From: Candidatus Latescibacterota bacterium
Lineage (GTDB): Bacteria > Latescibacterota > UBA2968 > GCA-2709665
Length of the DNA: 64,000 nucleotides
Assembly (NCBI GenBank): GCA_965219455.1
Contig: OZ244744.1
Coordinates: 5,536,001 to 5,600,000 of the forward strand
Direction: 5' to 3'
Positions 6,002 through 54,661 of this stretch are shown here, piece by piece (within the stretch, counting starts at the first letter, position 1; the number at the start of each line of letters is the position of its first letter). The translations under genes and the position numbers were made by a program. Under the pieces are notes generated by a model. That model ran no database searches, was not told the origin of the DNA, and worked only from the letters and a program-made list of their open reading frames with translations.

Positions 6002-8626
6002 TTATGGCGTAAGCGTCCGGGCAATACGGAAACCGACGTTGTGGAGCCGCCCCCCGGTGTAGCTCCTGAAGCGATACGCGGCGCGGAGGATCCCGGGATC
6101 GACGTTGTACCACGAGCCGCCGCGCAATACCCGCTTCGCACAATCGCCCCCCTCCCAGGCTGACCCATCCGCAGGGGCGCCCGTATAGCTGTTGTTCCAG
6201 CAATCCTCAACCCACTCCCATACGTTCCCATGCACGTCATGCAGTCCCCACGCATTGGCCCAAAACGAACCCGCAGGCGCCGTCTTTTCATCGTCCCAGC
6301 GGCTACCGCAACCGTCGCAGTTGGCACGGTTGTGTCCAATCTCATCGCCCCAGTGATATCGCGTCGTTGTCCCGGCACGCGCCACGTACTCCCATTCCGC
6401 CTCACTCAACAAGCGATACGTCTTGTCCGTCCGTCGTGACAACCACCGCACATACGACTGCGCGTCATCCCAACTCACGTTGATCACGGGGCGGTTCCCG
6501 CGGCCCCATCCACTATCGTCCGGGACGTACCCGCCGCAACCTCCGGCATTCGCGCAAGCGTCCCATTCCGCAAACGTAACCTCGTACACACCCACCGCAA
6601 ACCGATAATCGATCCTTACGCGATGACGGGGTCGCTCGTCATCGAACCCCTCGCCACTATGGGACCCCATCATGAACGAGCCCGACGGCACCACCACCAT
6701 CTCCGGGCATTCTGCACAGACCATGAATTTTCCGCCTACTGTCCCGCTCAGCCGCTGGGCCTTACGCGCTGCCGACAGACGTCTTTCGAATCCGGACAAC
6801 ACTGAATCATCCACGTTAACCGCGCGTAGAGAATCCACGTAGCCATCTGCCTTGTCAAACGCCTCTTCTTCCAGGGTTTTCTCAAACATCCCTTTATACC
6901 GCTCAATCTTAGCCTGACGAAGGCGTTCCGCCTCCTCGGCGGCCAGACGCGCCCGTTCCACTTTCAGTCTTCGTGCCTCCACCTCACGCGCCGCCAACAA
7001 GCGATCTTCCAACCCCAACAACACGGGCGCAGATGCATTGACGGAACGCAGCGATTCCACGTACCTGACCGCTGTATCGAAATCCTTCCGGTCGAGCGAT
7101 TCCTCGAATTTTCGTTTGAAATCCACCACTTTGGCCAGGCGACGACGTTCCGCCTCCTCGGCGGCCAGCCGCGCATCTTGCTCCGCCTGCCGACGACGCT
7201 GTTCCGCCAGACGCGACGCCGATACGCGATCTTGCAACCCTGGCAATACGGGCGCATCTGCCCACACACCCCGTACCCGGGACACGTACTCATCCGCCTT
7301 GTCGAACTGCTTGGCGCGCAACGACGCATCAAACTTCGTCACGTAACGGCCGATTACGCTGTCCAGACCCGCGCTCGCTTCCTTATGGCCCGGCGCCAGG
7401 GCCAATACCGCCTGATACTTCTCCCACGCGTTGTTCCCCGCGGGACTCGTCAGCCGGTCCCGCGCCAGGTCTTCACCAGCGCCCGACAACAAAGCCGACA
7501 TCTGTTTAGCAGCTTCTCCTTCCAGCGCCAGGCGGAGCTGCTCCGGGCGATGGATGTTTTCATAGTAATAATAGCCCCCTCCCATCAGAAGCGCCAACAC
7601 GCACGCCACGGCGGCGAAAACCGGCCACTTGCGTTTCCCGGCCTGCCTCACGCGTGAACCATCAACCGTTGTGCGCTGCCGTGACCTCGGTGGGCGACCC
7701 TTTTCGGGCCTGACGACCGGCCGCGGTTTCTTCGCGCTGTCCGGCGTCTTTCCGGAAAGCGCAGTACGCCACGCGGCCACGCTCTGCGGGCGGTCCCCCT
7801 CATCCACCTTCAACGCCAGATCTATCGCCACAAGAAAACCGGCGCTCGCCTGACCCGCGCAACGCTCGGCCACCGGATCCAGCGGATCATTGCGCACCCG
7901 ATCCGTTGCATCGTCAGGGACGTGACCCGTCAATGCGTGGTAGCACACTGCGCCCAGCGCATAGATATCCGTCCAGGGTCCCTGGTCGCCGCGACTGGAA
8001 TACTGCTCGATGGGCGCGTAACCCGGCGTGATGATCGACGTGACAGACCGGCTGCGCGCCCCGATCGCCTGACGCGCCGCGCCGAAGTCCAGCAGCACCG
8101 GCGACCTGTCCTCGTCACGGATGATGATATTGCCAGGCTTGACGTCGCGGTGCAGAAAATTGGCCTCGTGGACCTCCTCCAGACCGTCCAGAATCGGAAA
8201 CAGAATGGCCTTAAGATCGGCTTCGCCCAACGTCTTACTGCGTTTGAGGAATTCCGACAGGGTCTCCCCCTCGGCGTATTCCATAACGATATACGCCGTG
8301 CCGTGCGCCTTAAAAAAACGAAACACTTTGATGATATGCCGGTGATCGAACCGGGCAAGGGTGCGCGCTTCGTCCAGGAATCGTTCCAGGCCCCACTCGA
8401 AGTCACCCAGAAACTGGCTCGCCTTCGGGACCACGCTGTTGTCGTCCGTGCGCGCGGCAATGTCGTCCGGCAGGAATTCCTTCACCGCGACCCCTTTGTC
8501 CAGGTTGTGGTCAAAACCCAGATACGTCATGCCGAAACCGCCGAAGCCCAGCACTCTCATCAGTTCGTATTCCTGCAGCCGATAACCCTGCGGCAGCGCG
8601 TTGAGCGGGTGTTGAGCGTCGTTCAA
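6002..8626 (-). CDS. Receptor Ser/Thr kinase - TM - stalk - FGE-sulfatase (CLec) protein, paralog 1
   Basis: GFGGFG, VAVKE, HRDVKPGN, DFG, TPGYAPIEQ; TM WPVFAAVACVLALLMGGGYYYY; FGE motifs MVVVPSGSFMMGS, RLLSEAEWEY, GNVWEW, RGGSW...GFRIAR; TTG start. Confidence 0.93.
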   Translation of the reverse strand: MNDAQHPLNALPQGYRLQEYELMRVLGFGGFGMTYLGFDHNLDKGVAVKEFLPDDIAARTDDNSVVPKASQFLGDFEWGLERFLDEARTLARFDHRHIIKVFRFFKAHGTAYIVMEYAEGETLSEFLKRSKTLGEADLKAILFPILDGLEEVHEANFLHRDVKPGNIIIRDEDRSPVLLDFGAARQAIGARSRSVTSIITPGYAPIEQYSSRGDQGPWTDIYALGAVCYHALTGHVPDDATDRVRNDPLDPVAERCAGQASAGFLVAIDLALKVDEGDRPQSVAAWRTALSGKTPDSAKKPRPVVRPEKGRPPRSRQRTTVDGSRVRQAGKRKWPVFAAVACVLALLMGGGYYYYENIHRPEQLRLALEGEAAKQMSALLSGAGEDLARDRLTSPAGNNAWEKYQAVLALAPGHKEASAGLDSVIGRYVTKFDASLRAKQFDKADEYVSRVRGVWADAPVLPGLQDRVSASRLAEQRRRQAEQDARLAAEEAERRRLAKVVDFKRKFEESLDRKDFDTAVRYVESLRSVNASAPVLLGLEDRLLAAREVEARRLKVERARLAAEEAERLRQAKIERYKGMFEKTLEEEAFDKADGYVDSLRAVNVDDSVLSGFERRLSAARKAQRLSGTVGGKFMVCAECPEMVVVPSGSFMMGSHSGEGFDDERPRHRVRIDYRFAVGVYEVTFAEWDACANAGGCGGYVPDDSGWGRGNRPVINVSWDDAQSYVRWLSRRTDKTYRLLSEAEWEYVARAGTTTRYHWGDEIGHNRANCDGCGSRWDDEKTAPAGSFWANAWGLHDVHGNVWEWVEDCWNNSYTGAPADGSAWEGGDCAKRVLRGGSWYNVDPGILRAAYRFRSYTGGRLHNVGFRIARTLTP
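6012..6135 (-). repeat. DGR variable-region-like segment VR1 (non-cognate to the local TR; one extra codon)
   Basis: Aligns to TR 22925-23045 with many changes at TR adenines, several non-A differences and a 3-nt insertion. Confidence 0.65.
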
Positions 8627-13833: not shown

Positions 13834-14577
13834 TTACGTATCCTGCCAGTCAAACGCGTCGCCGCACAGGGGTACGAATCGCAGAACCGTATCCCCGACG
13901 CCGATATGGCTATGCGCAGGTAATTCAGTTGGAACCAGTACGGGCTGATCCCCCAGGTAGGTCAAATTGGCGCCAACGCCGTGCTGCACGGTAAACTTCC
14001 TGCCGCGGGGATCGTAGTTCACGATGGCATGTCCCCCCCGGGATACCTGACTATCGCCGAAATCGAGGTTCACGCGAGCGGTCTCTCCCCGGCCAATGGT
14101 ATTTTGCCCGTAACCCAGCTGAAGGGCTTTTCCCTTACCGGGTCCCTCGACAATCGCCAACCACCCCACAACCGGATTATTCATGCCGTCGGCTTCGACG
14201 GCGGGCTTCCGCTTTTCACCCGGCGTCGGGCGCCCACCGATGTTGATGACTGTGCGTTCCTCCTCCTTTCCCGGTCCGGGCGTTGAGGCGCGCTTTTTCT
14301 TACGTCGTCCGACGGGGAAGTCGGTTGCCGGTTCCGTCTGTCCAAGCAGTTTTGTGGGCTCATCCAGGCGGCCCCCGCCAGCGACGTCGCCACCCCGCTC
14401 CGGCGCGGGTTGCCGCCCCGGCTTAGTGGGTTCATTCGAACCTCCCGCGGTCTCACGGCCACCCGGATGGGCCGGCGGCGCCAGATCTTCAATCCGATCA
14501 GTCGGCACGGTTCCGTCGTCCGTCTTTTTACTTTTCTCCTCCACGATCTTGCCATCGGGTCCGCGGTAAACGGGCAT
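13834..14577 (-). CDS. FHA domain protein with disordered N-terminus (copy A)
   Basis: VVGWLAIVEGPGKG, NTIGR, DSQVSRGGH, NLTYL FHA motifs; N-terminus carries repeated EPTK/ERTV Thr motifs. Confidence 0.85.
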   Translation of the reverse strand: MPVYRGPDGKIVEEKSKKTDDGTVPTDRIEDLAPPAHPGGRETAGGSNEPTKPGRQPAPERGGDVAGGGRLDEPTKLLGQTEPATDFPVGRRKKKRASTPGPGKEEERTVINIGGRPTPGEKRKPAVEADGMNNPVVGWLAIVEGPGKGKALQLGYGQNTIGRGETARVNLDFGDSQVSRGGHAIVNYDPRGRKFTVQHGVGANLTYLGDQPVLVPTELPAHSHIGVGDTVLRFVPLCGDAFDWQDT

Positions 14578-14724
14578 AACGACGTCCTCCTAAAGCGGTG
14601 AGCGGAAAGAGGTGAGATTCCTGTAACAAGACTTTGCACAAATCAGTGCCTGTTTATCTACGCTGTTTGCGTCGGGTGCGGGGTTGGCATCCCCCCACCG
14701 CATCAGCCGTCGCCGGCCCTTCGA

Positions 14725-14800
14725 CCCTTCGACAAGCTCAGGGACCGCAGGCTCAGGGAACCGGCTCGGCTTCTGCGACTCCGCCTCAAGGGGGGAGTGA
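14725..14800. repeat. REP-like repeats cccttcgacaagctcaggg / ctccgcctcaaggggggagtga
   Basis: Related copies at about 34569, 46266-46372 and 51944-52030. Confidence 0.7.
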
Positions 14801-14919
14801 TGAAAACGAAGCGCTTGATCGGTCTGCCTGTGCGGTCAGTGTCCTTTGGTTTGTTGATGAGACGCGAGGTCTTGTGGACGCGGGGTGGTCCTCTCCCGTC
14901 TAACGTCTCACCGCTCCTG

Positions 14920-15693
14920 TCATTTTTCATACAGCCTGTTAATCAGATTATCCAGACAGTACTGGCCCGACCGGTTCAACGCCATTTCCTCTTTCTGCTG
15001 CACGACATGCAGGGCAAAGACAAGCAACGCCGATTGGAGCAGGGCAAGCAGAGTCGTGTAGAACGCAACGCCCAGCCGCCCGGTGATCTCCGGCAGCAGA
15101 TTCGGATCCTGTGGATTTTCATTGCTTCCGGCGTAATCCAGCGCCAGGGCGATCCCCACAACCGTGCCGATAAAACCCAGCGTGGGAATCAACCAGACCA
15201 GGTACCGCAGCATGTTGTATTTGAGTTCAAGCTCGTGTTGAAACAGTTCAAGGGAAGAATTCAAGAGAGAATTCGCCTGGTTGACGGATCCGCTGCCCTG
15301 GAATTGCAGGATGCAGCGCAAGGTCAGACGCTGCAGAAAATACGTCGGCTCCCCGTCCGCCGGGCGCAACCTGTTATAGAGAGGGCCCAGGTCCTGCGAT
15401 CGCAACATGCTCGTGTCGTCTTCCGGTAGATATCGCATCGAGAGTTGCGCTGTCTCCAGGTTGGATTGGTTGAACCGCCGCCACAACTCGCCGCAACTGA
15501 TGAAAAACATAATCCACATGGTATTCTGGATGGAAAACGGATAGGAATTCGCCTGCCGATCGAGCAGGAAGTCGCCAGCCATGGAATCGCCGCTCTTGAA
15601 AATGAAGCTCATTACGGCAATGAATACAACGCCGGTGACCACGCTCACGCCGAATGCGATCAGCCGTAGATTCGTCTCGGAATTCCGTTCCAT
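14920..15693 (-). CDS. MotA/TolQ/ExbB proton-channel family protein (copy A)
   Basis: IPTLGFIGTVVGI and LGVAFYTTLLAL signature TM helices; start taken at ATG 15693 (MERNSET), just after the FHA gene. Confidence 0.88.
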   Translation of the reverse strand: MERNSETNLRLIAFGVSVVTGVVFIAVMSFIFKSGDSMAGDFLLDRQANSYPFSIQNTMWIMFFISCGELWRRFNQSNLETAQLSMRYLPEDDTSMLRSQDLGPLYNRLRPADGEPTYFLQRLTLRCILQFQGSGSVNQANSLLNSSLELFQHELELKYNMLRYLVWLIPTLGFIGTVVGIALALDYAGSNENPQDPNLLPEITGRLGVAFYTTLLALLQSALLVFALHVVQQKEEMALNRSGQYCLDNLINRLYEK

Positions 15694-15694
15694 A

Positions 15695-16081
15695 TCAGCC
15701 CTCGTCTGGAATGATTTCACCTGTATCGGGATTGCGGCGTACGTTGCCCCCGGGAAGGGCGTCCGCCTGTTTCGGGTCGGCAGCCGGGCGCCCCGGGTCC
15801 TGATCACCCCTCGCTCCGAGTTTCTGCAGTAGTCCGAGCGCAGTTGTCTGGTGACGACCGAGGAGAATTGCATCCTCTGGGGATATGAATTCCTGCCTGA
15901 TGCGGATCCACTCGCCATTCCGCGCCACGTAACTGCCGTTCCTGCTCGCACAGTCGGTCAGATAGTACGACCCTTTCGCGGTTACGACCAACTCGGCGTG
16001 GATACGTGAGACCGTGGCGTCGTCAATGCGAATATCCGCGTCCGTACCGCGACCGATTCTATACGTCGAAAAGCCGGACAT
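15695..16081 (-). CDS. Small FHA domain protein (copy A)
   Basis: YRIGR, DATVSRIHA, SRNGSYV. Confidence 0.9.
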   Translation of the reverse strand: MSGFSTYRIGRGTDADIRIDDATVSRIHAELVVTAKGSYYLTDCASRNGSYVARNGEWIRIRQEFISPEDAILLGRHQTTALGLLQKLGARGDQDPGRPAADPKQADALPGGNVRRNPDTGEIIPDEG

Positions 16082-16092
16082 TACGAGATCCT

Positions 16093-16857
16093 CTAATGGT
16101 GTGTGACGCGCATATTACCTTCGGCATCGACGGTTACCGTCGCCACCAGTTCCTTGTCACCTTCTCTTCTTAGCCGTATCTGCCGCAAAGGCGTCTGGCC
16201 GTCCGGCGTCAATACACCTCCCCGCACAAGCACACTCTCTCCCTTGTCGGTATTGAAATATTTGTAGTACACCCGATAAGTCCCTGCCTCTGCCAACGGA
16301 TGCAGCCAGATTTCATTACCTGGCCCCCTTGTATTGTCCTCTTCCAGCTTTGCCCGAGAACCCGAAAACGAACGGTTCCTGTAATAGAACTCGCGTCCGG
16401 CGGGGTCGAGAACGTGCAGGTCGATATCGTCGCCTGTATTCCAACTCATGATGATCAAGAGGAATTTCTTCCGCGCCTGCGCCTGACACGACGATAGGTC
16501 CGCCTCGAGATCCCGGTTGCGGCTTTCGCACTCGCCCAGAGCGTTCCTGGACACGGACCCCTGCTGCTGCTCTTCACACGCCGCAAGCTGTCCTTCAAGC
16601 TGCCGGTTAAGTTCCTCACAGGCGGCCAGGCCATCCGGGGATACCGACGCCTGCTGTTGGTCTTCACACGCGGCCAGGGCCGCCTGGACCTGCTCAAGCT
16701 GCGCCCTCACTTCCGCCACCCGCTCCGCAGAATCGCCGGTGTTCGGGAAGTACGGAAACAGGACAAAAGCAATGAGTATGAATGCGCCCATCGCCGAGGC
16801 GAACAGGTCCAGTGCCGACATACTGAAGATATTGAGTTCCCTGCTGCGGGATTTCAT
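16093..16857 (-). CDS. Single-TM MotB/ExbD-like protein with coiled coil and YfaP/DUF2135-like domain (copy A)
   Basis: N-terminal SALDLFASAMGAF TM with Asp; LAACEE repeats; C-terminal SWNTGDDIDLHVLDPAG...EDNTRGPGNE. Confidence 0.7.
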   Translation of the reverse strand: MKSRSRELNIFSMSALDLFASAMGAFILIAFVLFPYFPNTGDSAERVAEVRAQLEQVQAALAACEDQQQASVSPDGLAACEELNRQLEGQLAACEEQQQGSVSRNALGECESRNRDLEADLSSCQAQARKKFLLIIMSWNTGDDIDLHVLDPAGREFYYRNRSFSGSRAKLEEDNTRGPGNEIWLHPLAEAGTYRVYYKYFNTDKGESVLVRGGVLTPDGQTPLRQIRLRREGDKELVATVTVDAEGNMRVTHH

Positions 16858-16872
16858 GACGCGGCACTCCTG

Positions 16873-18489
16873 TCAGGATTTGGAAACCATCAACTCCACG
16901 TCGCCCAGCGCAACAGTGGCGCCATAGTCCAGACGCTCCGGACGAAAGGGAGGCAGGCGACGGCGATTCAGCAACGTCACGTTGCTCGAGTTCAGATCTT
17001 CGATACGAAATCCATTGTCAGCAGCGCTGATTCTGACGTGACGCCTGGATACATTGTCGTCGTGGATGACTTCATCCACAAGGTCCGGATGCCTGCCCAG
17101 CGAAAGTCCCAGCCGTTGTCCCACGAATTTTTCCGGCGATAGCGCGATGCGAACGCGGTTGCCCCGCCCGTCGAACCCGGCCAGCACCAGACCGTGTCCC
17201 GGGCGCTGCCCTTCCGGTGGTCCTTCAACCGCCCCGTCGTGCGCTCTTCGTCTGATGGGCCGGCTCAGCTGTTCGGCAACGTGGATGATCTGCTGCCGTG
17301 GTTTCTTCAGGCCGAGCAGCAGGGCCGCGAATGTCAGGATACCAAGAAACGTCCCACCTATAAGAAAACGCCGTCGCGACGCTTCAGCATGCAGACGAGT
17401 TTCTTCAACTTCCCGCATCGCTTCTTCCACCTGGCGCGCGGCCTCACCTGCCTGGCGCTTCGCATCCTCCGCCTCCTGGCGCGTCCGTCCCGCTTCCCGG
17501 GTCGCTTCCTCCGCTCGCCGGGTCGCTTCTTCGGCCTCCTGGCGCGTCCGTCCTGCTTCCCGGGTCGCTTCCCCCGCTCGCCGGCTCGCTTCTTCGGCCT
17601 TCCGACGCGTTTTTTCTGTTTCCCGGCTTGCTTCTTCCGCCAGGCGCCTGGCCTCCCCCGCCTGGCGCCTGGCCTCCCCCGCCTGGCGCGTCGCTTCTTC
17701 CGCTTCGCGGCGTGCCTTTTCCGCCTCCTCGTATCCACCGGCGCCACCTGCCGGCGCGCACGGACTGGTTTCCGGTGTTTGGAAAGGGATTCGGTGATCG
17801 CGAAGCAGCGTTACCAATTCCTCCACGTGTGAAGACCAGTATATTCCCGCCGCGTGGGGCACGCGGGTGACTCCCTCGGATTGGCTTTCGATGACAACGA
17901 GAGACGCCTGCGTATTCACGCCAATCACCCTCCCGCAATCATCCAACAGTGGTCCCCCGCTGTTACCGGGATTCGTAGGGGCGTTGTGTTGAATAATTCT
18001 GAACGTCTGCGTGTGCCAGGCACCGGAAAAGAGCCTGCCGATGACGCCGTCCTGCACCGTCGCATCATCGGCGAAACTCTCTCTATCTGCCTCTCCAGGA
18101 TAGCCGATGGCCCACACCTTCTGTCCAGCCTTCAGTTCAGCGAGGGAAAGCCGCACGGGCGGGAGATCGAGTCTTCGCGCGTGGAGGATTGCCAGATCCA
18201 GTTCGGTGGATACGGCAATCACCTTGACGTTGTACAGGGAATTGGACTTTGCAGGGCGAACCCTGATCCGGCCGCCGCTGTCAATCACATGGAGGTTTGT
18301 GGCGACAAATCCTCGATCATTGATCACAAACCCTGTACCTGTGCCGATCCCCTGGTTCGTCTCAGTCAGAATCCGAACAACACTCCTCTTCAGCCTGTTG
18401 AAATCCGGCGTGGCCAACACGTCGTGCCCGTGTAAGAGAAACGCGATCAGGAGACAGACGGCACGCAACGATCTGACAGCTTTCCGCAT
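16873..18489 (-). CDS. Trypsin-like serine protease - coiled coil - TM - FHA protein, intact triad (copy A)
   Basis: Signal peptide; TNLHV, DLAIL, PGNSGGPL; AEEA/AGEA heptad repeats; TM; LGR...VSRRH...DLNSSN. Confidence 0.9.
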   Translation of the reverse strand: MRKAVRSLRAVCLLIAFLLHGHDVLATPDFNRLKRSVVRILTETNQGIGTGTGFVINDRGFVATNLHVIDSGGRIRVRPAKSNSLYNVKVIAVSTELDLAILHARRLDLPPVRLSLAELKAGQKVWAIGYPGEADRESFADDATVQDGVIGRLFSGAWHTQTFRIIQHNAPTNPGNSGGPLLDDCGRVIGVNTQASLVVIESQSEGVTRVPHAAGIYWSSHVEELVTLLRDHRIPFQTPETSPCAPAGGAGGYEEAEKARREAEEATRQAGEARRQAGEARRLAEEASRETEKTRRKAEEASRRAGEATREAGRTRQEAEEATRRAEEATREAGRTRQEAEDAKRQAGEAARQVEEAMREVEETRLHAEASRRRFLIGGTFLGILTFAALLLGLKKPRQQIIHVAEQLSRPIRRRAHDGAVEGPPEGQRPGHGLVLAGFDGRGNRVRIALSPEKFVGQRLGLSLGRHPDLVDEVIHDDNVSRRHVRISAADNGFRIEDLNSSNVTLLNRRRLPPFRPERLDYGATVALGDVELMVSKS

Positions 18490-18492
18490 GAC

Positions 18493-20070
18493 TCACTCCG
18501 GGATCAGACGCACCTGAAACACCACGGGCCCCATCTCCAACCGATCGTTGTCCCGCAATTCCTCCGGTTCATTGGCGTTGAGCGTGCGGCCGTTTACCCT
18601 GGTTCCGTTCGTGGAGTTCAGGTCCTCCGCGTAGAGGCGTCCGCCGGCATACGAGAACCTGACGTGTTCGCGTGAGACGGCTTCGTGGGCGATGATAAAT
18701 TCCGAGTTGGCGGGGCTTCTTCCCAGCGCAACGCCGGAGGGCAGCGCCAGCGCCGGGACGCTCAACACAAAGGGCCGCCCCACGTCGTCCTGGCCTTCCA
18801 GCAGACACCTGAACGGCGCGGGTTGGGGCGCGCGCGCCGCGGCCTGCCGCGCGGCTTCTGCCTGCCGTTCCGCCTCTTTGGCGCGGGATGAACTGCTGTG
18901 CAACTGTGCTCTTTTCGCGCGTGCGAATAGCAACCAGCCGAGAAGCAATAGAACGACGACGGCAGCCCCAGCGAGAACGGTCCATTGAAACCGTTCGGAC
19001 GTCTCTTCGCGCTCCTGGTTCTGAACCGCGGCCAGGCTATCCCGTGTTGTCCGGAGTCGATCTGCCGCCGACATTCTTATGGAATCCGCACGCGTGCGGG
19101 CCAGGGAATCCGCCCATGCATGCGCCCGTGTCAAACTGTCTTCCCGCGCCTGTTTCAAGGAATCGGTCCGGGCCTGCGCGCGTTCGAGGCGTCTTCTTTC
19201 TGCCCTCAGGCGTTCGTCCGCCGCCGACTTTATGGAGTCCTCCCGCGTCTGCCGCAGGGAATCTGTCCTTGCCCGTTCCCGTCTCAGACTGTCTTCCCGT
19301 GCCCGGGTCAGGGAATCTTTCCGCGCCTGCGCCCGTCTCAAGCTGTCTTCCCGCGCCTCCGCGCGTTCAATAGCAGTCAGGCATGCGTCGTCAACGAAGG
19401 TATGGGCAATTTCCGCATCATTGAGCACGTTCACGATATCGCCGCTGCGCAACGCGAAGACGGTTCCCCTGGGATCCTTGTCGTTCCGGAACGGCCAGCG
19501 CCCGCTCTCCGGGTCGGGCAGGTTGATGCCAACCACGTCCCCACATTCATTGAACACGGGCATACCGAACGCCCTTGACGTCACAATGGCGTTGTGCTGC
19601 AGCAGATGTACGACGGAATCGGCAGGGGTCCTGCCCGGGACGTCCTGGTGGGCGCCGATGGTACCGCGGGCAACCCGGACGCTGTCACCAGCGGCGAACG
19701 TGAGGGTCTCCACCACCCGCCCCACGCCGGCCCCCTGCTCCGACAGGCTCAGGGGCGGGGATCCCAGGCCCTGCACGCGCAACAGAGCGAGGTTCATCTC
19801 CCTGCTGGCGAATACCTCCCGGGATAAAATCTCCGCACCAGTCTTCAGGGACAACACGGTCACCCGGTCCGCATTCGCCAGGAGGTGCGCGTTGGTCAGC
19901 ACGTCTCCGTTTCCATTCACGACAAAGCCGCACCCTTCGGCCGCGACCCTGTTATATCTGTGCGCACGCACCCGGACGATGCTCTCCGATACGACGTCGA
20001 CGTCGATTTGCCCGAACGCCGGGCCGGCCAACGAGAACACAGCGATCTGCACAAGCAACGAGACTCGCAT
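18493..20070 (-). CDS. Degenerate trypsin-like domain - REDSL repeats - TM - FHA protein (copy A)
   Basis: GCGFVV, TNAHL retained, but NLALL and AFGMP replace DLA and NSGGP; FHA LGRS...VSREH...NSTNGT; start ATG 20070. Confidence 0.85.
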   Translation of the reverse strand: MRVSLLVQIAVFSLAGPAFGQIDVDVVSESIVRVRAHRYNRVAAEGCGFVVNGNGDVLTNAHLLANADRVTVLSLKTGAEILSREVFASREMNLALLRVQGLGSPPLSLSEQGAGVGRVVETLTFAAGDSVRVARGTIGAHQDVPGRTPADSVVHLLQHNAIVTSRAFGMPVFNECGDVVGINLPDPESGRWPFRNDKDPRGTVFALRSGDIVNVLNDAEIAHTFVDDACLTAIERAEAREDSLRRAQARKDSLTRAREDSLRRERARTDSLRQTREDSIKSAADERLRAERRRLERAQARTDSLKQAREDSLTRAHAWADSLARTRADSIRMSAADRLRTTRDSLAAVQNQEREETSERFQWTVLAGAAVVVLLLLGWLLFARAKRAQLHSSSSRAKEAERQAEAARQAAARAPQPAPFRCLLEGQDDVGRPFVLSVPALALPSGVALGRSPANSEFIIAHEAVSREHVRFSYAGGRLYAEDLNSTNGTRVNGRTLNANEPEELRDNDRLEMGPVVFQVRLIPE

Positions 20071-20554
20071 AAAGAGACTCTCCTGGAGGAAAGTGAAAGG
20101 TCTCACAGTATGGACAGGATTCCGGTCTTTGGTTTTATCCTGTTCATCCATGTTCCTCGATTTCGTGAATTGAAGCCATACTCGCCACGTGTTGCGAAAC
20201 GCAACAGATGGCGCATATTGCGACAGTCTGGCGCGCACGATGCCGGACACGTCCGACGTTTCAGTCCGGTCTCTTCTCTTTCGAGTATTGCCCGGACAAC
20301 GCATTGCGCGGAACATCCGCCAACCTGAATCGTTACCGAACCGACAATATATAGTCTACTATTCTTAATGCAACCATTAGATATTTTACGTATTTATATA
20401 TACTTTACATTTTTATATACACGTTCGGTACTATTTTCCGCGAGTTTACCCATCGTCGTGGCTGATTGTTCTCATCGGCGTTGACTTTAGACGCATTTAA
20501 ACGTGCGCCACGGATACAGGCCGGGCGCGACCGCGGAATACAGGTAAACAGGGA

Positions 20555-20596
20555 CAGAACAAAACAAGGGGCTACGTCGGCGGACGTAGCCCCTTG
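20555..20596 (-). terminator. Intrinsic terminator-like hairpin
   Basis: 14-bp perfect stem caaggggctacgtc/gacgtagccccttg followed by TTTTGTTCT on the minus strand. Confidence 0.7.
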
Positions 20597-20607
20597 CATT
20601 CAAATAT

Positions 20608-20648
20608 TCGCGGGCGCCCGGATTAGAACCGGGGCCCCGTTCGCAAAA
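20608..20648 (-). other. Degenerate 3' half of tRNA-Pro(CGG) (att-like fragment)
   Basis: ggccccggttctaatccgggcgccc versus tRNA ggcccccggttcgaatccgggcgcccc at 57550-57626. Confidence 0.6.
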
Positions 20649-45293: not shown

Positions 45294-46034
45294 TTATTCT
45301 CTCGATCTCTCTTCCACGTCCTGCCAGTCGAACGCGTCGCCGCAGAGGGGCACGAAACGGAGAACCGTCGAACCAATATGAATGTGGCTATGCGCGGGTA
45401 GTTCAGTTGGAACCAGTACGGGCTGATCCCCCAGGTAGGTCAGGTTCTTGCCCCCGCCGTGCTGCACGAAAAACTTCCTGCCGCGGGGATCGTAGGTCAC
45501 AACGGCGTGACCGCCGCGGGAAATCTGATTATCGCCGAAGTCCAGGCTGACGCGGGCGGTTCTCCCGCGCCCGATCGGATTGGAACCATTACCCAGCTGA
45601 AGGGCCTTTCCTTTTCCCGGCCCCTCGACGATCGCCAGCCACCCCACAACCGGGTCATTCATGCCGTCGGCTTCCACGGCGGGCTCCCGCCTGTCACCCG
45701 GCCTGGGGCCCGCGCCCACGTTGATAACGGTGCGTTCCTCCTCTTTTCCCGATCCGGGCGACGCGACGCGCTCCTTCTTACGTCGTCCAACGGGGAAGTC
45801 GGTTGCCGATTCCGTTTGTCCCATCGGTTTTGTGGGCTCATCCAGACGACCCGCACCGGCGACGTCACCTCCCCGCTCCGGTACAGGTTGCCGCCCCGGC
45901 TTTGTGGGTTCATCCGAACCTCCCCCGGTTTGACGGCCACCCTGAGGCGCCGGCGGCAACGGTTTCTCTTTGAAGTCTGTCGGCTTGCTTTTTTCTTCGA
46001 TGATATTGCCATCGGCATCACGGTAAACGGGCAT
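45294..46034 (-). CDS. FHA domain protein with disordered N-terminus (copy B)
   Basis: Paralog of 13834-14577; start ATG 46034. Confidence 0.85.
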   Translation of the reverse strand: MPVYRDADGNIIEEKSKPTDFKEKPLPPAPQGGRQTGGGSDEPTKPGRQPVPERGGDVAGAGRLDEPTKPMGQTESATDFPVGRRKKERVASPGSGKEEERTVINVGAGPRPGDRREPAVEADGMNDPVVGWLAIVEGPGKGKALQLGNGSNPIGRGRTARVSLDFGDNQISRGGHAVVTYDPRGRKFFVQHGGGKNLTYLGDQPVLVPTELPAHSHIHIGSTVLRFVPLCGDAFDWQDVEERSRE

Positions 46035-46526
46035 AACAAAGTCCTCCAAGAGCGGTGAGAGGTAAGAGGTGAGAAGTGAGATGGAGGTCCCGCATCTCTG
46101 GTCTCCCTTAGTCAGGGTCTCGTAATTCTCCTTCCGATACGCGGAGAGAGGCGGGAGTCTTGTGTTTTGTAGTAAGACCTTTAAGCAAAATACATTCGCC
46201 CAGACTCGTGCTGTTTCCTTCGGGTGAGGGGTTGGCATCCCCCCACCGCATCAGCCGTCGCCGGTCCCTTCGACACGCTCAGGGCAGCGCCTTCGACAAT
46301 CCTTCGACAGGCTCAGGACAGGGCTCAGGGAACCGGCTCGGCTTCTGCGACTCCCCCTCAAGGGGGGAGTGATGGCGAGTTCAGGACGCGATGCTCCGTG
46401 CGAAGAAAGAGCGATACAACGGAGTACGCGCGGGTCGTCTTGCCTCTCCCGTCCTGTGCCGTGGGTGAGAAGGTTTCGGCGAGGCGGCGGGGTGGTCCTC
46501 TCCCGTCTAACGTCTCCCCGATTCTG

Positions 46527-47300
46527 CTATTTTTCATACAGCCGGTTAATCAGATTATCCAGACAGTACTGCCCCGACCGGTTCAGTGCCATTTCCTCTT
46601 TCTGCTGCACGACATGCAGGGCAAACACGAGCAACGCCGATTGGACGAGGGCAAGAAGGGTCGTGTAGAACGCCACGCCCAGCCGCCCGGTGATCTCCGG
46701 CAGCAGATTCGGATCCTGTGGATTTTCATTGCTTCCGGCATAATCCAGCGCCAGGGCGATCCCCACAACCGTGCCGATAAAACCCAGCGTGGGGACCAGC
46801 CAGACGAGGTACCGCAGCATGTTGTATTTGAGTTCAAGCTCGTGTTGAAATAATTCAAGGGAAGAATTCATGAGGGAATTGGCCTGGTTGACGGACCCGC
46901 TGCCCTGAAACTGCAGGATGCAGCGCATGATCAGACGCTGCAGAAAGTACGTCGGCTCCCCTTCCGCCGGCCGCAACCGGTTATAGAGGGGGCCCAGGTC
47001 CTGTGATCGCAGCATGCTCGAATCGTCTTCCGGGAGATATCGCATCGTGAGTTGCGTCGTCTCCATGTTGGATTGGTTGAACCGCCGCCACAACTCCCCG
47101 CAACCGATGAAAAACATAATCCACATGGTATTCTGGATGGTAAACGGATAGGTATTCGCCTGGCGATCGAGCAGGAAATCGCCCGCCATAGAATCGCCGC
47201 TTGTGAAAAGGAAGCTCATTACCGCAATGAAAACAACGCCGATGACCACGCTCACGCCGAATGCGATCAGCCGTAGATTCGTCTCGGAATTCCGTTCCAT
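46527..47300 (-). CDS. MotA/TolQ/ExbB family protein (copy B)
   Basis: Paralog of 14920-15693; VPTLGFIGTVVGI. Confidence 0.88.
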   Translation of the reverse strand: MERNSETNLRLIAFGVSVVIGVVFIAVMSFLFTSGDSMAGDFLLDRQANTYPFTIQNTMWIMFFIGCGELWRRFNQSNMETTQLTMRYLPEDDSSMLRSQDLGPLYNRLRPAEGEPTYFLQRLIMRCILQFQGSGSVNQANSLMNSSLELFQHELELKYNMLRYLVWLVPTLGFIGTVVGIALALDYAGSNENPQDPNLLPEITGRLGVAFYTTLLALVQSALLVFALHVVQQKEEMALNRSGQYCLDNLINRLYEK

Positions 47301-47301
47301 A

Positions 47302-47688
47302 TCAGCCCTCGTCTGGAATGATTTCACCTGTGTCCGGATTGCGGCGAACGTTGCCCTCCGGAAGGGCGTCCGCCGGCTTTGGGCCTGCAGCCGGGCGCCC
47401 CGGGTCAGGATCGCCCCTCGATTCGAGTCCCTGCAGCAGTCCGAGCGCGCTTGTCTGGTGACGACCGAGGAGAATCGCATCCGCGGGGGAAACGAATTCC
47501 TGCCTGATGCGTATCCACTCGCCGTTCCGCGCCACGTAACTGCCGTTCCTGCTCGCACAATCGGTCAGATAGTACGACCCCTTCGCGGTCACGACCAACT
47601 CGGCGTGGACACGTGAGACCGTGGCGTCGTCTACTTGAATTTCCACGTCCGTACCGCGACCGATTCTATACGTCGAAAAGCCGGACAT
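47302..47688 (-). CDS. Small FHA domain protein (copy B)
   Basis: Paralog of 15695-16081. Confidence 0.9.
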   Translation of the reverse strand: MSGFSTYRIGRGTDVEIQVDDATVSRVHAELVVTAKGSYYLTDCASRNGSYVARNGEWIRIRQEFVSPADAILLGRHQTSALGLLQGLESRGDPDPGRPAAGPKPADALPEGNVRRNPDTGEIIPDEG

Positions 47689-47699
47689 TGCGGGATCCT

Positions 47700-48527
47700 C
47701 TACCGGTGTGTGACGCGCATATTGCCTTCGGCATCCACGGTGATCGTCGCAACCAGCACCTTGTCACCTACTCTTCTGAGCCGTATCTGCCGCAAAGGCG
47801 TCTGGCCGTCCGGCGTCAAAACACCACCCCGTACAAGCACACTTTCTTCGGTGGCGGAGTTGAAGTATTTGTAGTAGACCTGGTAGGTCCCTGCCTCTGC
47901 CAACGGATGCAGCCAGATTTCATTGCCTGGGCCCCTTGTATTGTCCTCTTCCAGGTTTGCCCGAGAACCGGAAAACGAACGGTTCCCGTAATAGAACTCC
48001 CGCCCAGCGGGATCGAGTACGTGCAGGTCGATATCGTCACCTGTATTCCAACTCATGATGATCAAGAGGAATTTCTTCCGCGCCTGCGCCTGACACGACG
48101 ACAGGTCCGCCTCGAGTTCCCGGTTACGGCTCTCGCAAGCCCCCAGGGCGTTACGCGGTACGGAGCCCTGCTGCTGCGCCTCACACGCCGCAAGCTGTCC
48201 TTCAAGCTGCCGGTTAAGTTCTTCGCAGGCGGCCAGGGCATCCGGGGATACCGACGCCTGCTGTTGTTCTTCACACGCTGCCAGGGCCGCCTGGACCTGC
48301 TGGTTGCGGCTTTCGCACGCGTTCAGTTCCCCTCTCGCTGCCTGTAACTCATTCTGGACGCTCTCAAGGCGCGCCATGACTTCCGCCACCCGCTCGGCTG
48401 CATCGCCGGTGTTCGGGAAGTACGGAAACAGGACGAAGGCAATGAGAATAAATGCTCCCATCGCCGAGGCGAACAGGTCAAGCGCCGACATACTGAAGAT
48501 ATTGAGTTCCCTGCTGCGGGATTTCAT
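47700..48527 (-). CDS. Single-TM MotB/ExbD-like, coiled coil, YfaP-like protein (copy B)
   Basis: Paralog of 16093-16857 with 21 extra coiled-coil residues. Confidence 0.7.
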   Translation of the reverse strand: MKSRSRELNIFSMSALDLFASAMGAFILIAFVLFPYFPNTGDAAERVAEVMARLESVQNELQAARGELNACESRNQQVQAALAACEEQQQASVSPDALAACEELNRQLEGQLAACEAQQQGSVPRNALGACESRNRELEADLSSCQAQARKKFLLIIMSWNTGDDIDLHVLDPAGREFYYGNRSFSGSRANLEEDNTRGPGNEIWLHPLAEAGTYQVYYKYFNSATEESVLVRGGVLTPDGQTPLRQIRLRRVGDKVLVATITVDAEGNMRVTHR

Positions 48528-48542
48528 GGCGCGGCACTCCTC

Positions 48543-50075
48543 TCAGGATTTGGAAACCATCAACTCCACGCCACCGGGCGCAACGGTGGCGCCATAATCC
48601 AGACGCTCCGGACGAAAGGGAGGCAGGCGACGGCGATTCAGAAACGTCCCGTTGCTCGAGTTCAGATCTTCGATACGAAATCCATTGTCAACAGCGCGGA
48701 TTCTCACGTGACGCCTGGATACATTGTCATCGTGGATGACTTCATCCACAAGATCCGGATGCCTGCCCAGCGAAAGTCCCAGCCGTTGTCCCTCTAATTT
48801 TTCGGGCGATAGCGCGATGCGAACGCGGTTGCCCCCGCCGTCGAACCCGGCCAGCACCAGACCGTGTCCCGTGCGCTGCCCTTCCGGTGTTCCTTCAACC
48901 GCCCCGTCGTGAGTTCTTCTCCTGATCGGCCGGCTCAACTGTTCCGCGACGTGGATGATCTGCTGCCGTGGTTTCTTCAGGCCAAGCAGCAGGGCCGCCA
49001 GGGTCAAGGCGCCAAGCAATGTCCCACCGATGAGAAACCGCCGGCTCGCCTCTTCCGCCTGGAGGCGCGTCGTTTCTATTTCCCGGCTTGCTTCTTCCGC
49101 CTGTCGCGCGGCCTCACCCGCCTGTTGTTTCGCTTCCTCCGCCTCCTGGCGCGTGCGTCCTGCTTCCCGGGTCGCTTCATCCGCGCGCCGCGTCGCTTCT
49201 TCGGCCTTACGCCGCGTCCTTGCTGTTTCCCGGGTTGCTTCTTCCGCCTTTCGCCGGGCCTCGCCCGCCTGTCGTTTCGCTTCTTCCGCCTCACGGCGGG
49301 CATTTTCCGCCTCCTCGGATCCTCCGGCTCCACCCGCCGGCAAACACGGACTGGTTTCCGGTGGTTGGAAAGAGATTCGGTGATCGCGCAGCAGCCTTGC
49401 CAATTCCTCAATGTGGGAAGACCAGTATATTCCCGCCGCGTGGGGCACACGGGTGACTCCCTCGGACCGGCTTTCGATCACAACCAGAGACGCCTGCGTA
49501 TTCACGCCGATGACCCTCCCGCAGTCATCCACGAGGGGACCGCCGCTGTTGCCGGGGTTCGTAGGCGCGTTGTGTTGAATGATCCTGAATCTCTGCGTGT
49601 GCCACGCCCCGGAGAATATCCTGCCGATAACGCCATCCTGCACAGTTGCATCATCGGCGAGACCCTCTCTGTCGGCGCCTCCCGGATAGCCGATTGCCCA
49701 TACTTTCTGTCCTGTCTTTAATTCCGCGAGCGAAAGCTGCATCGGTGGAAGATTGATCCCACGCGACTGAATGATTGCCAGATCGCGTTCAGAGGACACG
49801 GCAACCACCCTGGCGTCGTACAGGGTATTGGACTTTGCCGGTCGTACTCTGATCCGGCCGCCGCCGTCAATAACATGGACGTTTGTGGCGATGTAACCGC
49901 GTTCGTTGATCACAAATCCTGTACCGGTACTGGTCCCCCGACGCGTCTCGTTCAGAATCCGCACAACACTCTTCTTGAGTGCATCCAGGTCCGGACTGGC
50001 AACGGCATGATGCCCGTGAAAGAGCAACGCCAGAAGGAGATAGACAGGACTTATCGATCTGATCATGTTCTGCAT
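48543..50075 (-). CDS. Trypsin-like protease - coiled coil - TM - FHA, intact triad (copy B)
   Basis: TNVHV, DLAII, PGNSGGPL; C-terminal FHA. Confidence 0.9.
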   Translation of the reverse strand: MQNMIRSISPVYLLLALLFHGHHAVASPDLDALKKSVVRILNETRRGTSTGTGFVINERGYIATNVHVIDGGGRIRVRPAKSNTLYDARVVAVSSERDLAIIQSRGINLPPMQLSLAELKTGQKVWAIGYPGGADREGLADDATVQDGVIGRIFSGAWHTQRFRIIQHNAPTNPGNSGGPLVDDCGRVIGVNTQASLVVIESRSEGVTRVPHAAGIYWSSHIEELARLLRDHRISFQPPETSPCLPAGGAGGSEEAENARREAEEAKRQAGEARRKAEEATRETARTRRKAEEATRRADEATREAGRTRQEAEEAKQQAGEAARQAEEASREIETTRLQAEEASRRFLIGGTLLGALTLAALLLGLKKPRQQIIHVAEQLSRPIRRRTHDGAVEGTPEGQRTGHGLVLAGFDGGGNRVRIALSPEKLEGQRLGLSLGRHPDLVDEVIHDDNVSRRHVRIRAVDNGFRIEDLNSSNGTFLNRRRLPPFRPERLDYGATVAPGGVELMVSKS

Positions 50076-50078
50076 ATT

Positions 50079-51656
50079 TCACTCCGGCATCAGACGCACC
50101 CGAAAAACGACGGGGCCCATCCCGAGTTCATCATTGTTGTCCAGGACAACATGTTCACCGGGAGATATCAGACGCCCATTGATCGTCGTACCGTTCGTGG
50201 AGTTCAGATCCTCCGCGTAGAGGCGCCCGCCGGTATAGATGAGCCTGACGTGTTCGCGGGAGACGGCTTCGTGGTCGATTATGAATTCCGAGTTGGCGGG
50301 ACTTCTCCCCAGCGCGACTCCGGACGGCAGCGCCAGCGCCGGAATGCTCAACACAAACGGCCGCCCGGTGTCGTCCTGGCCCTCCAGTAAACACCTGAAC
50401 GGCGCGGGGTGAGGCGCGCGCGCCGCGGCCTGCCGCGCGGCTTCGGCCTCCCGTTCCGCCTCGCTGGCACGGGATGAACTGCTCTGCACCTGCGCCTTCT
50501 TCGAGCGGGCGAACAGGAACCAGCCCAGAAGCAACAGAATGACGAAGGCAGCCCCTGCAACTACGGTCCATCGAAACCGTTCGGACGCCTCTTCCTGGCC
50601 CTTCCTGTTGACCTCTGCCAGGCTATCCCGAGTTGCTTCGAGTCGATCTGCCGCCGCCCTTCTTATGGAATCCGCACGCGCGCGGGCCAGGGAATCCGCC
50701 CTTGCGTGCGCCCGTGTCAAACTGTCTTCCCGCGCATGTTTCAAGGAATCGCCCCGGGCCTGCGCGCGTTCGAGGCGTCCTCTTTCTGCCCTCAGGCGTT
50801 CCTCCGCCGCCGCCTTAATGGAGTCCTCCCGCGCCTGATTCAGGGAATCGGTCTTTGCCCGTTCCCGTCTCAGACTGTCTTCACGTGCCTGTGTCAGGGA
50901 ATCTGTTCGTGCCTGCGCCCGTCTCAAGCTGTCTTCCCTCGCTTCCGCCCGTTCAATGGCAGTCAGGCACGCGTCGTCAACCACGGTATGGGCGATTTCC
51001 CGTTCCCTGAGCGCGGCAATGACGTCGCCGCTGCGCAGGGCGAAGACGGTTCCCCTGGGATCCTTGACGTTCCGGAACGGCCAGCGCCCGCTATCCGGGT
51101 CCGGCAGGTTGATTCCGATTACCTTCCCACATTCATTAAACACGGGCATACCGAACGCCCTGGACTTCACGATGGCGTTGTGCTGCAGCAGATGTACGAG
51201 GGAATCGGCGGCGGTTCTGCCGAGTATGTCCTGGTGGGCGCCGATGGTACCGCGCGCAATCCGGACACTGTCACCAGCGGTGAATGTGAGGGTCTCCACC
51301 ACCCGTCCCACGTCCGACCCCTGCACAGACAGACTCAGGGGCGGGGATCCCAGGCCCTGCACGCGCAACAGAGCGAGGTTCATCTCGCGGCTGGCAAACA
51401 CCTCCTGCGCCACGATCTCCGCACCCGTCTTCAGGGACAATACCGTTACCCGGTCCGCATTCGCCAGGAGATGCGCGTTGGTCAGCACGTCCCCGTTTCC
51501 ATTCACGACAAAGCCGCTCCCTTCCGCCGCGACCTTGTTATATCTGTACGCACGCACCCGGACAACGCTCTCGGATACGACGTCGACGTCGGTCTGCCCG
51601 AACGCCGGGCCGGCCAGTGCGAACACAGCGATTTGCACAAGCAACGAGACACGCAT
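50079..51656 (-). CDS. Degenerate trypsin-like - TM - FHA protein (copy B)
   Basis: Paralog of 18493-20070; same NLALL and AFGMP substitutions; start ATG 51656. Confidence 0.85.
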   Translation of the reverse strand: MRVSLLVQIAVFALAGPAFGQTDVDVVSESVVRVRAYRYNKVAAEGSGFVVNGNGDVLTNAHLLANADRVTVLSLKTGAEIVAQEVFASREMNLALLRVQGLGSPPLSLSVQGSDVGRVVETLTFTAGDSVRIARGTIGAHQDILGRTAADSLVHLLQHNAIVKSRAFGMPVFNECGKVIGINLPDPDSGRWPFRNVKDPRGTVFALRSGDVIAALREREIAHTVVDDACLTAIERAEAREDSLRRAQARTDSLTQAREDSLRRERAKTDSLNQAREDSIKAAAEERLRAERGRLERAQARGDSLKHAREDSLTRAHARADSLARARADSIRRAAADRLEATRDSLAEVNRKGQEEASERFRWTVVAGAAFVILLLLGWFLFARSKKAQVQSSSSRASEAEREAEAARQAAARAPHPAPFRCLLEGQDDTGRPFVLSIPALALPSGVALGRSPANSEFIIDHEAVSREHVRLIYTGGRLYAEDLNSTNGTTINGRLISPGEHVVLDNNDELGMGPVVFRVRLMPE

Positions 51657-52161
51657 AAACAGACTCTCCTGAAGAAAGTGATAGGTATCACGTGTACGGA
51701 CGGGACGGACGATTTTGAGGTTTTGTCCTGTCCATATATCCCAATTTTGCGCATTCAAATCTTGCGGGCGAGGACGCCCGCGTTCCCAGGGGGTACCCTG
51801 AGGGCGAGTGCGTCCGCCCGAGTTTGTTGACGATAGCTTCAGCCCCAGTTGCAGCGGAAGCCGCGGAAGATTCTTCGACTCCGCTCAGAATGACAGGGCG
51901 ACGAATGACGTTGACGTCCCCCCACCGCATCAGCCTTTGCCTGCCCTTCGACAAGCTCAGGGGACCGGCTCGGCTTCTGCCTGCCTGTCCTGCGGACGCA
52001 GGCAGGCGACTCCCCCTCAAAGGGGGAGCGATGCGGTGTGAAGGCGCTTTCTCAATGGGTTCGCCAACAGCGCAATCGACGCGCGGGTTATTTGGTTATC
52101 GGGTTCCGTTGTTTACACCCGAGCGAGACACGCAGTCAGCCGGTCGATCCCGGAAAAATCG

Positions 52162-54661: not shown

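Follow-up and report, generated by a model that had tools for sequence, protein, structure and literature searches.

What history lies behind eight neighbouring receptor genes whose closest resemblances change from one gene segment to the next? This question is raised by a stretch of 64,000 nucleotides from a Candidatus Latescibacterota bacterium (contig OZ244744.1, positions 5,536,001 to 5,600,000; hereafter the window), which lies within a genome assembled as 1 contig of 5,844,228 bases (5.84 Mb). Metagenome-assembled genomes (MAGs) labelled Candidatus Latescibacterota are the nearest public relatives of this source genome. Eight long paralogous open reading frames (ORFs), P1 to P8, are found from 6002 to 54661 of the window, all of them on its minus strand and within 49 kb. 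Each encodes, in this order, an N-terminal Ser/Thr kinase, one transmembrane helix, a repeat stalk and a C-terminal FGE/C-type-lectin (CLec) domain. The proteins are 744 to 910 aa long, and Pfam recognises Pkinase (E ~1e-36 to 1e-38) and FGE-sulfatase (E 1e-49 to 1e-55) in all eight, for P3 via its two pieces. The genome contains one diversity-generating retroelement (DGR), which consists of bAvd, a reverse transcriptase (RT) and a single template repeat (TR) and is located downstream of P3; the variable regions (VRs) that match the TR lie at the 3' ends of the genes. In the work presented here we find that the eight genes are of mosaic ancestry: trees of their parts are incongruent, one stalk repeat is a hybrid, and the three forms of a segment in the middle of the FGE domain are found in other genomes as well. 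P1 to P8 are very probably a mosaic array of DGR-target receptor kinases that were duplicated and then patched by gene conversion around three old forms of this segment, which corresponds in position to the so-called insert 2 of CLec proteins.

Incongruent histories along the genes

The pairwise homoplasy index (PHI) was calculated with the VR left out, so that DGR mutagenesis could not be the source of any homoplasy. For the whole gene with its 541 informative sites a z value of -18.1 was obtained, and 0 of 2000 permutations were as low. The same permutation result (0/2000) was found for the kinase (z -4.9), the stalk-proximal part (z -5.0), the FGE domain before the VR (z -11.7) and third codon positions only (z -8.5). 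For the N-terminal half of the FGE domain alone (FGE N-half) z was -2.9, with 6 of 2000 permutations as low. Maximum-likelihood trees of seven partitions differ in topology. When each partition was confronted with the trees of the six others in approximately unbiased (AU) tests, 35 of the 42 comparisons led to rejection at p-AU<0.05. The whole-gene tree was rejected by the N-terminal part of the kinase (p 0.0007) and by the FGE N-half (p 0.003), and the summed loss amounted to 86.4 log-likelihood units.

The partners of individual genes also shift in neighbour-joining trees of sliding 300-nt windows, for which groups with at least 70% bootstrap were recorded. P1+P2 is found with 100% through column 500 and is absent beyond. 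P3+P4 appears with 97-98% at 301-400 and 601-700, P2+P5 with 89% at 601-700, P3+P8 with 78% at 651-750, P2+P4+P8 with 84% at 701-800 and P3+P4+P5 with 99-100% at 751-900. Furthermore, a GENECONV-style scan with up to 112 segments tested returned 38 pair-specific tracts at a permutation p<=0.01, 34 of them with 0/500. An earlier note on this DNA had suggested recombinational mosaicism of the eight genes and had named congruent trees along the whole gene as the outcome that would speak against it. Such congruence was not obtained, as the partition trees differ, most AU cross-tests reject and sister groups shift. The suggestion is supported by PHI, by the AU tests, by the sliding trees and by the grouping of forms across genomes described below.

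The near-identity of P1 and P2 over about 430 residues and their subsequent divergence, which had likewise been pointed out in that note, are confirmed at the DNA level, with 97.5% identity over alignment columns 12-485 as compared to 87.4% overall. Identity is 97-99% in columns 31-210, 88-91% in columns 211-270 and 100% in columns 271-480, a stretch that takes in the least conserved linker. After column 480 it falls to 67-83%, with an island of 98% at columns 541-570. Upstream of the two genes, similarity starts merely 36 nt 5' of the start codon.

The stalk indeed varies in copy number, from 1 to 3 homologous units of ~74-75 aa each. Units r1+r2+r3 are present in P1-P5 and P7, while P8 has r1 and one further unit and P6 has r1 followed by 11 residues of r2. 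The further unit of P8 is a hybrid, in which nt 45-135 match r2 of P3/P4 with 91-93% identity and the last 45 nt match r3 of P3 with 100% identity; in-register recombination between r2 and r3 would yield exactly this unit.

The middle block of the FGE domain

In the protein alignment of the eight genes, three forms of the middle segment are seen at columns ~816-875, and they are those listed in the earlier note. Form A, RY(H/N)WG.EIGHNRANC.GCGSRWD, is found in P1 (6260-6364), P6 (40255-40359) and P8 (52469-52573) and in a diverged version in P7 (42701-42805). Form B, TPFHFG.TI.T.QANY..(..)TYG.GRKG, is found in P3 (24944-25066), P4 (29387-29509) and P5 (35067-35189), and form C, AARYWGESSREQCHYGNGADE..., in P2 alone among the eight (9238-9384). 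The forms are mutually unalignable, with 35, 41 and 49 residues, respectively, between columns 816 and 875. By direct reading of the alignment, form A has a C-x2-C pair, form B no cysteine and form C two cysteines 22 residues apart. The divergent DNA block begins right after the ARAGTTT codons and stops right before the GNVWEW codons. Exact runs of 20-31 nt flank it on both sides and link copies of different form (31 and 30 nt for P1-P4, 31 and 29 nt for P4-P8). A length of ~20-31 nt is about what RecA-type recombination needs. Within a form, DNA identity is 81-92% and not above that of the flanks. The form of the middle block is independent of the VR framework, as had been claimed before: P4 and P8, the VRs of which differ at 2 of the 88 non-adenine sites, carry forms B and A, and P2 and P3 (4 of 88) carry forms C and B. 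The middle segment was also considered as a second VR. This was rejected, as the TR matches the 3' ends of the genes only and the differences among the forms include indels and affect all four bases.

The FGE domain of P8 was modelled with AlphaFold from a 29-sequence alignment (mean predicted local distance difference test score, pLDDT, 84.3; predicted template modelling score 0.87). The model matches PvdO with a template modelling score of 0.84, TvpA with 0.75 and FGEs with 0.74. By sequence, the closest solved relative is PvdO from Pseudomonas aeruginosa (5hha, E 1.5e-54), and TvpA from Treponema denticola (2y3c) is found with E 5e-15. All share the FGE-subtype CLec fold; PvdO, however, is a soluble periplasmic pyoverdine-maturation protein without VR, kinase or stalk, and TvpA is a single-domain lipoprotein without kinase or stalk. 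In the P8 model the middle block follows helix α2 (residues 112-120, the EWEY helix) and precedes strand β2 (173-180), and in the P2 model the corresponding elements on its two sides are residues 112-119 and 187-193. As judged from the models, this is clearly the topological place of the CLec insert 2. According to two structural studies (PMC5006420, PMC6328139), Mtd, TvpA and AvpA have insert 2 between α2 and β2, where it hydrogen-bonds to the VR or bolsters it, TaqVP being an exception.

Homologs of the array genes were collected in a scan with one genome per species, which gave 61 loci, mostly in Latescibacterota MAGs and some in MAGs labelled Gammaproteobacteria, Gemmatimonadota and others. 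From these, 24 outside FGE domains were extracted, and two rows were left out of the trees, one because it was truncated and one because its middle block could not be classified. All three middle forms are present in other genomes. In the middle-block tree (30 rows) the sequences fall into three groups by form, with support of 89, 86 and 98. As a test that does not depend on the form labels, a constraint that unites P2, P3, P4, P6 and P8 in this tree is rejected (p-AU 3.5e-11), as is one that unites all eight genes (2.5e-71). In the tree of the FGE N-half the same five genes (forms C, B, B, A and A) form a clade with an SH-aLRT (Shimodaira-Hasegawa-like approximate likelihood ratio test) support of 86, with P2+P4+P8 at 92, and clades of form B (p 0.026) and of form C (p 0.015) are rejected. 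The within-genome clade of the FGE N-half, taken together with the grouping by form across genomes, thus argues that the flanks were homogenised in this genome and that the forms are older than the genome.

Other parts of the genes have their closest relatives elsewhere, too. The first ~120-125 residues of P4 are 91% identical to locus L010 of another genome versus 68% to the best paralog of its own, and the middle block of P2, which is without partner in its own genome, has its best match in locus L002 (71%). Five of the six possible combinations of the two kinase-lobe lineages with the three middle forms were found among the genes examined. In a five-gene cluster of another Latescibacterota genome the nearest neighbour also changes along the gene (PHI z -14.5, 0/2000). 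A search with P8 in 31 genomes gave a single full-length match in each of five genomes of the same genus (62-63%) and in one of another genus (71%), as compared to eight copies here; an array of comparable size was not found in the other genomes searched. Within the source genome, tblastn with the kinase and FGE parts detected no ninth close copy, and other FGE domains of comparable lengths are at most 36% identical.

Two further observations concern the homologs. A 936-aa homolog from another Latescibacterota genome (L035:4204-7012) has one kinase followed by two tandem FGE domains, both of form B. Homologs with 52-71% identity lie in MAGs labelled Gammaproteobacteria and Gemmatimonadota (loci L020, L030, L031, L038, L040 and L047), which reflects either cross-phylum transfer within one community type or binning errors.

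Proposed gene conversion and its alternatives

We propose that segmental duplication would have enlarged an array of DGR-target receptor kinases and that repeated non-reciprocal homologous recombination (gene conversion) between same-strand copies, probably by a RecA-type process, would then have turned them into mosaics. Conversion tracts that start or end in the 20-31-nt identical runs could either move or spare the middle block. Conversion would have overwritten both sides of the block repeatedly while the three forms persisted, and in-register exchange between stalk units would have altered the number of units. As an outcome, different copies show different combinations of kinase lobe, stalk length, insert-2 form, VR framework and 3' flank.

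Several points weigh against this account. The AU cross-tests fail to reject in 7 of 42 cases, and the whole-gene tree is rejected by just two of six partitions, the other four giving p 0.059-0.39 with the middle block among them. The partition boundaries were set after inspection of the alignment. The count of pair-specific tracts comes from a test uncorrected for multiple pairs, in which regional conservation may lengthen runs, and the grouping of P7+P8 is possibly an attraction of two long branches. As the form labels derive from the middle block, the grouping by form in its tree is partly circular. The within-genome clade of the FGE N-half is moderately supported (86) and omits P1, P5 and P7, and the rejections of form B and form C clades in this part reach only p 0.026 and 0.015. 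The middle block itself is poorly modelled, with a block-mean pLDDT of 53-69 for form A and below 50 for form C, and a contact between the block and the VR is suggested by analogy to other proteins. The public contigs considered below are short (at most ~1.3 kb among those listed) and confirm local junctions only.

Could the array have arisen without recombination, from three anciently diverged genes that were duplicated, the remaining likeness being due to purifying selection on kinase and fold? The whole-gene tree does survive in four of six partitions and the middle forms follow it (p-AU 0.39). The PHI signal at third codon positions, the 100% DNA identity of P1 and P2 across a poorly conserved linker, the bootstrap support for P2+P4+P8 with its forms C, B and A at 701-800 and the 35 AU rejections nevertheless make this explanation hardly credible. 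A metagenome assembler might alternatively have stitched paralogs or strain variants into chimeras, given that the genome is metagenome-derived, as its relatives are MAGs, and that identity among the eight copies reaches 85-100% over long stretches. Against such an artefact, which we regard as very improbable, stand the assembly of the genome into one 5.84-Mb contig and the similar mosaic pattern in the five-gene cluster of another genome. Moreover, 73-82% of the words sampled from 6002-11700 (P1-P2) are present in six public runs from three studies, although one run may equal the source sample, so that the runs are not all independent. Both edges of the form-C block of P2 (9238-9384) are crossed by contigs from three runs, namely X1 (8781-9439, 0 differences), X2 (8756-9439, 1 difference) and X5 (8930-9432, 1 difference), and other public contig pieces match inside P1, P2 and P3. 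Horizontal acquisition from bacteria of the same community has been considered for the odd blocks, i.e. form C of P2 and the kinase N-lobe of P4, which belongs to a second lineage, K2. The match of this lobe to L010 rather than to its own paralogs, the match of the P2 block to L002, the homologs in MAGs with Gammaproteobacteria and Gemmatimonadota labels and the group II introns and multicopy short repeats of the locus would all fit an import. Protein identities of 91% and 71% are, however, not at the level of recent transfer, and retained old paralog lineages explain the blocks equally well. Import, which we consider quite unlikely, would add a source of pieces and still need recombination for joining them.

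A reading closer to the proposed gene conversion is that of an adaptive and ongoing combinatorial diversification, in which a module library is reshuffled and both the insert-2 form behind the DGR surface and the reach of the stalk are varied. Five layers (kinase lobe, stalk units, middle form, VR framework and 3' flank class) assort separately, three forms are kept across genomes, and same-genus genomes contain one full-length homolog each where found, versus eight here. In addition, the middle block is at the position of insert 2, which hydrogen-bonds to the VR or bolsters it in Mtd, TvpA and AvpA (PMC5006420, PMC6328139). On the other hand, no variation of the mosaic structure between samples was seen in contigs, which drop rare variants, of four runs from three studies (0-3 differences per listed piece). 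Within-form identity gives no sign of a recent cassette move. No recombinase or invertase family was detected among the 41 window ORFs scanned, and all copies are full-length rather than silent cassettes. Conversion among clustered paralogs yields the same pattern also without selection, and adaptive shuffling appears rather unlikely to us. The same data fit a homogenising conversion that spared three old cassettes equally well as a diversifying shuffle. The shuffling may be adaptive, tuning binding scaffold and reach as the earlier note suggested, or it may be ordinary concerted evolution, and any benefit to the cell would be hypothetical. A two-tier diversification of receptors in a bacterial symbiont, in which ongoing conversion would assemble an array of membrane sensor kinases from a cross-species pool of interchangeable modules and DGR adenine mutagenesis would fine-tune each resulting scaffold, is put forward only tentatively and seems unlikely. 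As part of this idea, the pool would comprise two kinase-lobe lineages, one to three stalk units, three insert-2 forms and several VR frameworks. In its logic it resembles vertebrate antibody gene conversion plus somatic hypermutation.

Gene conversion between duplicated copies, the reading that we prefer, has well-known counterparts. Concerted evolution by gene conversion in clustered bacterial families is characterised by same-orientation repeats, patchwork identity and islands that escape homogenisation. The array resembles it in that copies within the genome are more alike than counterparts elsewhere. It differs from the usual case in that the family is targeted by templated hypermutation and in that the escaping island would, by analogy, be the insert that supports the hypervariable surface. 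In Neisseria pilE/pilS and Borrelia vlsE, segmental gene conversion makes mosaic surface proteins. Unlike these systems and the shufflon, the array has no single expression site with silent cassettes, but eight complete genes on one strand that encode sensors, not antigens. It works somewhat like cassette antigenic variation without belonging to it.

DGRs are usually regarded as varying only a few dozen codons, the scaffold around them being fixed. In the array described here this scaffold is itself built from exchangeable blocks, one of them at the position that the VR-supporting insert has in DGR proteins of solved structure. Should selection act on the exchange, the ligand range of the sensors would be set by two processes on different scales, and such arrays in host-associated bacteria would offer a natural system in which to study the build-up of recognition repertoires. 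Even as concerted evolution only, it matters for the annotation and phylogeny of DGR targets, as one tree per gene is wrong for the family. Concerted evolution would also explain why VRs that mismatch the TR persist beside matching ones.

Among described DGR targets, the Ser/Thr-kinase-CLec (STK-CLec) variable proteins with paralogs in cyanobacteria are similar (Vallota-Eastman et al. 2020, PMC7517822). They too have an N-terminal Hanks-type kinase, a C-terminal FGE-type CLec domain and a 3'-terminal VR, with several paralogs per genome, some of which retain remnant TR-VR homology only. What distinguishes the locus analysed here from the proteins described in that text is the set of eight paralogs in one 49-kb Latescibacterota array, the transmembrane helix and the repeat stalk. 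New relative to the STK-CLec proteins is the fine-scale mosaicism inside genes; the words 'recombination', 'gene conversion' and 'mosaic' have 0 occurrences in the text of PMC7517822. For Thiohalocapsa PB-PSB1, the study by Doré et al. 2024 (PMC10907252) describes intragenomic duplication and recombination of DGR loci with MITE-like (miniature inverted-repeat transposable element-like) repeats and mobile elements, the targets of which are interpreted as sensors for signalling or conflict. The present case shares these features. In that description, however, whole N-terminal domains are shuffled onto duplicated CLec ends and several DGRs are involved, whereas here one DGR and one architecture are found and sub-domain blocks (kinase lobe, stalk units, insert 2 and VR framework) are exchanged. 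DGRs with FGE-domain targets have also been linked to conflict systems (PMC7159879). No paper on mosaicism inside DGR target genes or on DGRs in Latescibacterota was found in the open-access literature and bioRxiv.

The retroelement, the gene copies and their surroundings

All components of the DGR are encoded on the minus strand: the bAvd-like accessory gene at 24111..24509 (132 aa; Pfam PF22296 bAvd, E 4.9e-17), the RT gene at 23045..24226 (Pfam RVT_1, 1e-14) and the TR at 22925..23045 (121 nt with 33 adenines and 88 non-adenine sites). The RT contains IGNLTSQ, which we take to fit the hallmark [LIV]GxxxSQ of DGR RTs. A tblastn search of the genome revealed no second RT of the DGR kind, the only other hits being RTs of group II introns with 26-29% identity, and no second TR that would account for the VR framework of P1, P4 and P8 was found in the whole 5.84-Mb genome. 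In this unit the target is followed by bAvd, the RT, the TR and the PP2C phosphatase gene, the TR thus coming behind the RT. In relatives the order of target, RT (or what is left of it) and PP2C is maintained; L001, for example, retains an RT tail of 28 aa and L024 an RT piece of 114 aa.

Differences between VRs and TR were counted separately at the 33 adenine and the 88 non-adenine sites of the TR. The VR of P3 is the best TR match with 19 adenine-site and 1 non-adenine differences (19/20 at adenines), followed by P2 with 16 and 5 (16/21), P4 with 14 and 7 (14/21) and P8 with 14 and 9 (14/23). P1 has 20 and 13 (20/33) plus a 3-nt insertion relative to the TR. For P5, P6 and P7, with 19-22 adenine-site and 23-24 non-adenine differences, the differences are not adenine-directed. 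All eight VRs have GCCCGGACG (P7: GCGCGGACT) where the TR has GCCCGCACG. The VR of P1 differs from those of P4 and P8 at 6 and 7 non-adenine sites; because of the few mutual differences, the VRs of P1, P4 and P8 are seen to share a framework that is unlike the present TR. That the exchange of segments comes on top of hypermutation, as formerly suggested, is clear for P2 and P3 and plausible, if less clean, for P1, P4 and P8, but does not hold for P5-P7, which differ from the TR at 23-24 of 88 non-adenine sites. Similarly, a shared template had been assumed for the VRs of P4 and P8. As the genome has one TR, from which the two differ at 7 and 9 non-adenine sites, this is true in the sense of a common framework only.

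Between P5 and P4 lies a relic of a third PP2C gene, consisting of its 5' part and upstream spacer (32221-32692), with homology stopping ~47 nt before the place where a TR would be expected. It may be a trace of a lost second DGR unit and a possible source of the VR framework of P1, P4 and P8. The 3' flanks of the array genes fall into two classes, one with a 10-bp GC hairpin and a T run behind it (P3, P4 and P8) and one with a CAGC-rich repeat (P1, P2, P5, P6 and, diverged, P7). As these classes do not track the VR frameworks, they point to a further breakpoint at the gene end.

Every one of the eight genes, which all lie on the minus strand, is of full length and has a start codon and a kinase domain; none is a silent partial cassette. 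P1 (6002..8626) encodes 874 aa with kinase, transmembrane helix, stalk units r1+r2+r3 and FGE domain (Pkinase 5.4e-36, FGE-sulfatase 4.9e-54); its VR lies at about 6005-6135. P2 (8983..11607; VR 8995-9111) has the same length and layout and is the sole form C copy. P3 (24689..27334; 881 codons; VR 24699-24819) is split into two ORFs solely by an in-frame TAG at 25385-25387, a position occupied by a Ser codon in the other seven paralogs (TCA in P4, TCG in the remaining six). Otherwise this TAG-bearing copy is intact, adjoins the RT and has the cleanest TR match. The TAG could mark a recent pseudogene, be a variant of the strain or result from an erroneous base. P4 (29132..31777) also comprises 881 aa, of which the first ~120 form the K2 lobe. 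The VR of P5 (34770..37460; 896 aa) is strongly diverged and has a 14-aa insertion. P6 (39997..42231; 744 aa) has the shortened stalk of r1 and the first 11 aa of r2. P7 (42446..45178), the most divergent paralog, encodes 910 aa from its MNDEQ start, the ORF extending to 45376, and P8 (52214..54661) encodes 815 aa with r1 and the one hybrid unit in its stalk.

Nested segmental duplications are evident in the array. By self-BLAST, the accessory module at 13841..20705 (minus strand), which encodes according to Pfam an FHA protein, a MotA/ExbB-like protein, a 254-aa unknown protein and two trypsin-transmembrane-FHA proteins, is duplicated at 45319-51705 plus 54916-55443 with 77-91% DNA identity. 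This second copy (45294..51758, minus strand) lies between P7 and P8, and its unknown protein has 275 aa. A PP2C phosphatase gene downstream of the TR (21705..22736, minus strand) is 89% identical at the DNA level to a first copy at 4350-5381, and the region of P3, flanks included, is similar to that of P4 (83.7% over 3.1 kb). The order of companion operon (13834-20316 and 45294-51758 in the window; two trypsin-transmembrane-FHA genes, unknown, MotA/ExbB-like and FHA), kinase-FGE gene and PP2C recurs near homologs in many relatives, and the operon has the appearance of a module for phospho-signalling with proteases as outputs.

A complete group II intron with maturase/RT and with Rfam matches to D1-D4 and D5/6 is inserted between P2 and the FHA gene (11806-13819, plus strand) and has many genomic copies of 98-100% identity; a short derivative that lacks the ORF is located between P5 and P6 (37551-38281, minus strand). 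The intergenic spaces of the array are filled with short multicopy repeats (8722-8841, 14680-14801, 21034-21237, 27441-27748 and 51907-52036), which occur in tens of copies genome-wide with 75-95% identity and show very high word depth in public contigs. A joint of 8765 to 21581 in contigs from two runs, which skips 12.8 kb including P2 and the first module, was rejected as a deletion variant, as its shorter side comprises 29-30 letters and its ends lie in multicopy repeats. Joints of variable length are also seen in public contigs around 14714-14762. At the low-coordinate end of the array, just past the first PP2C copy, lies a gene for a LexA-type repressor with Peptidase_S24 and LexA DNA-binding domains (3251-3937).

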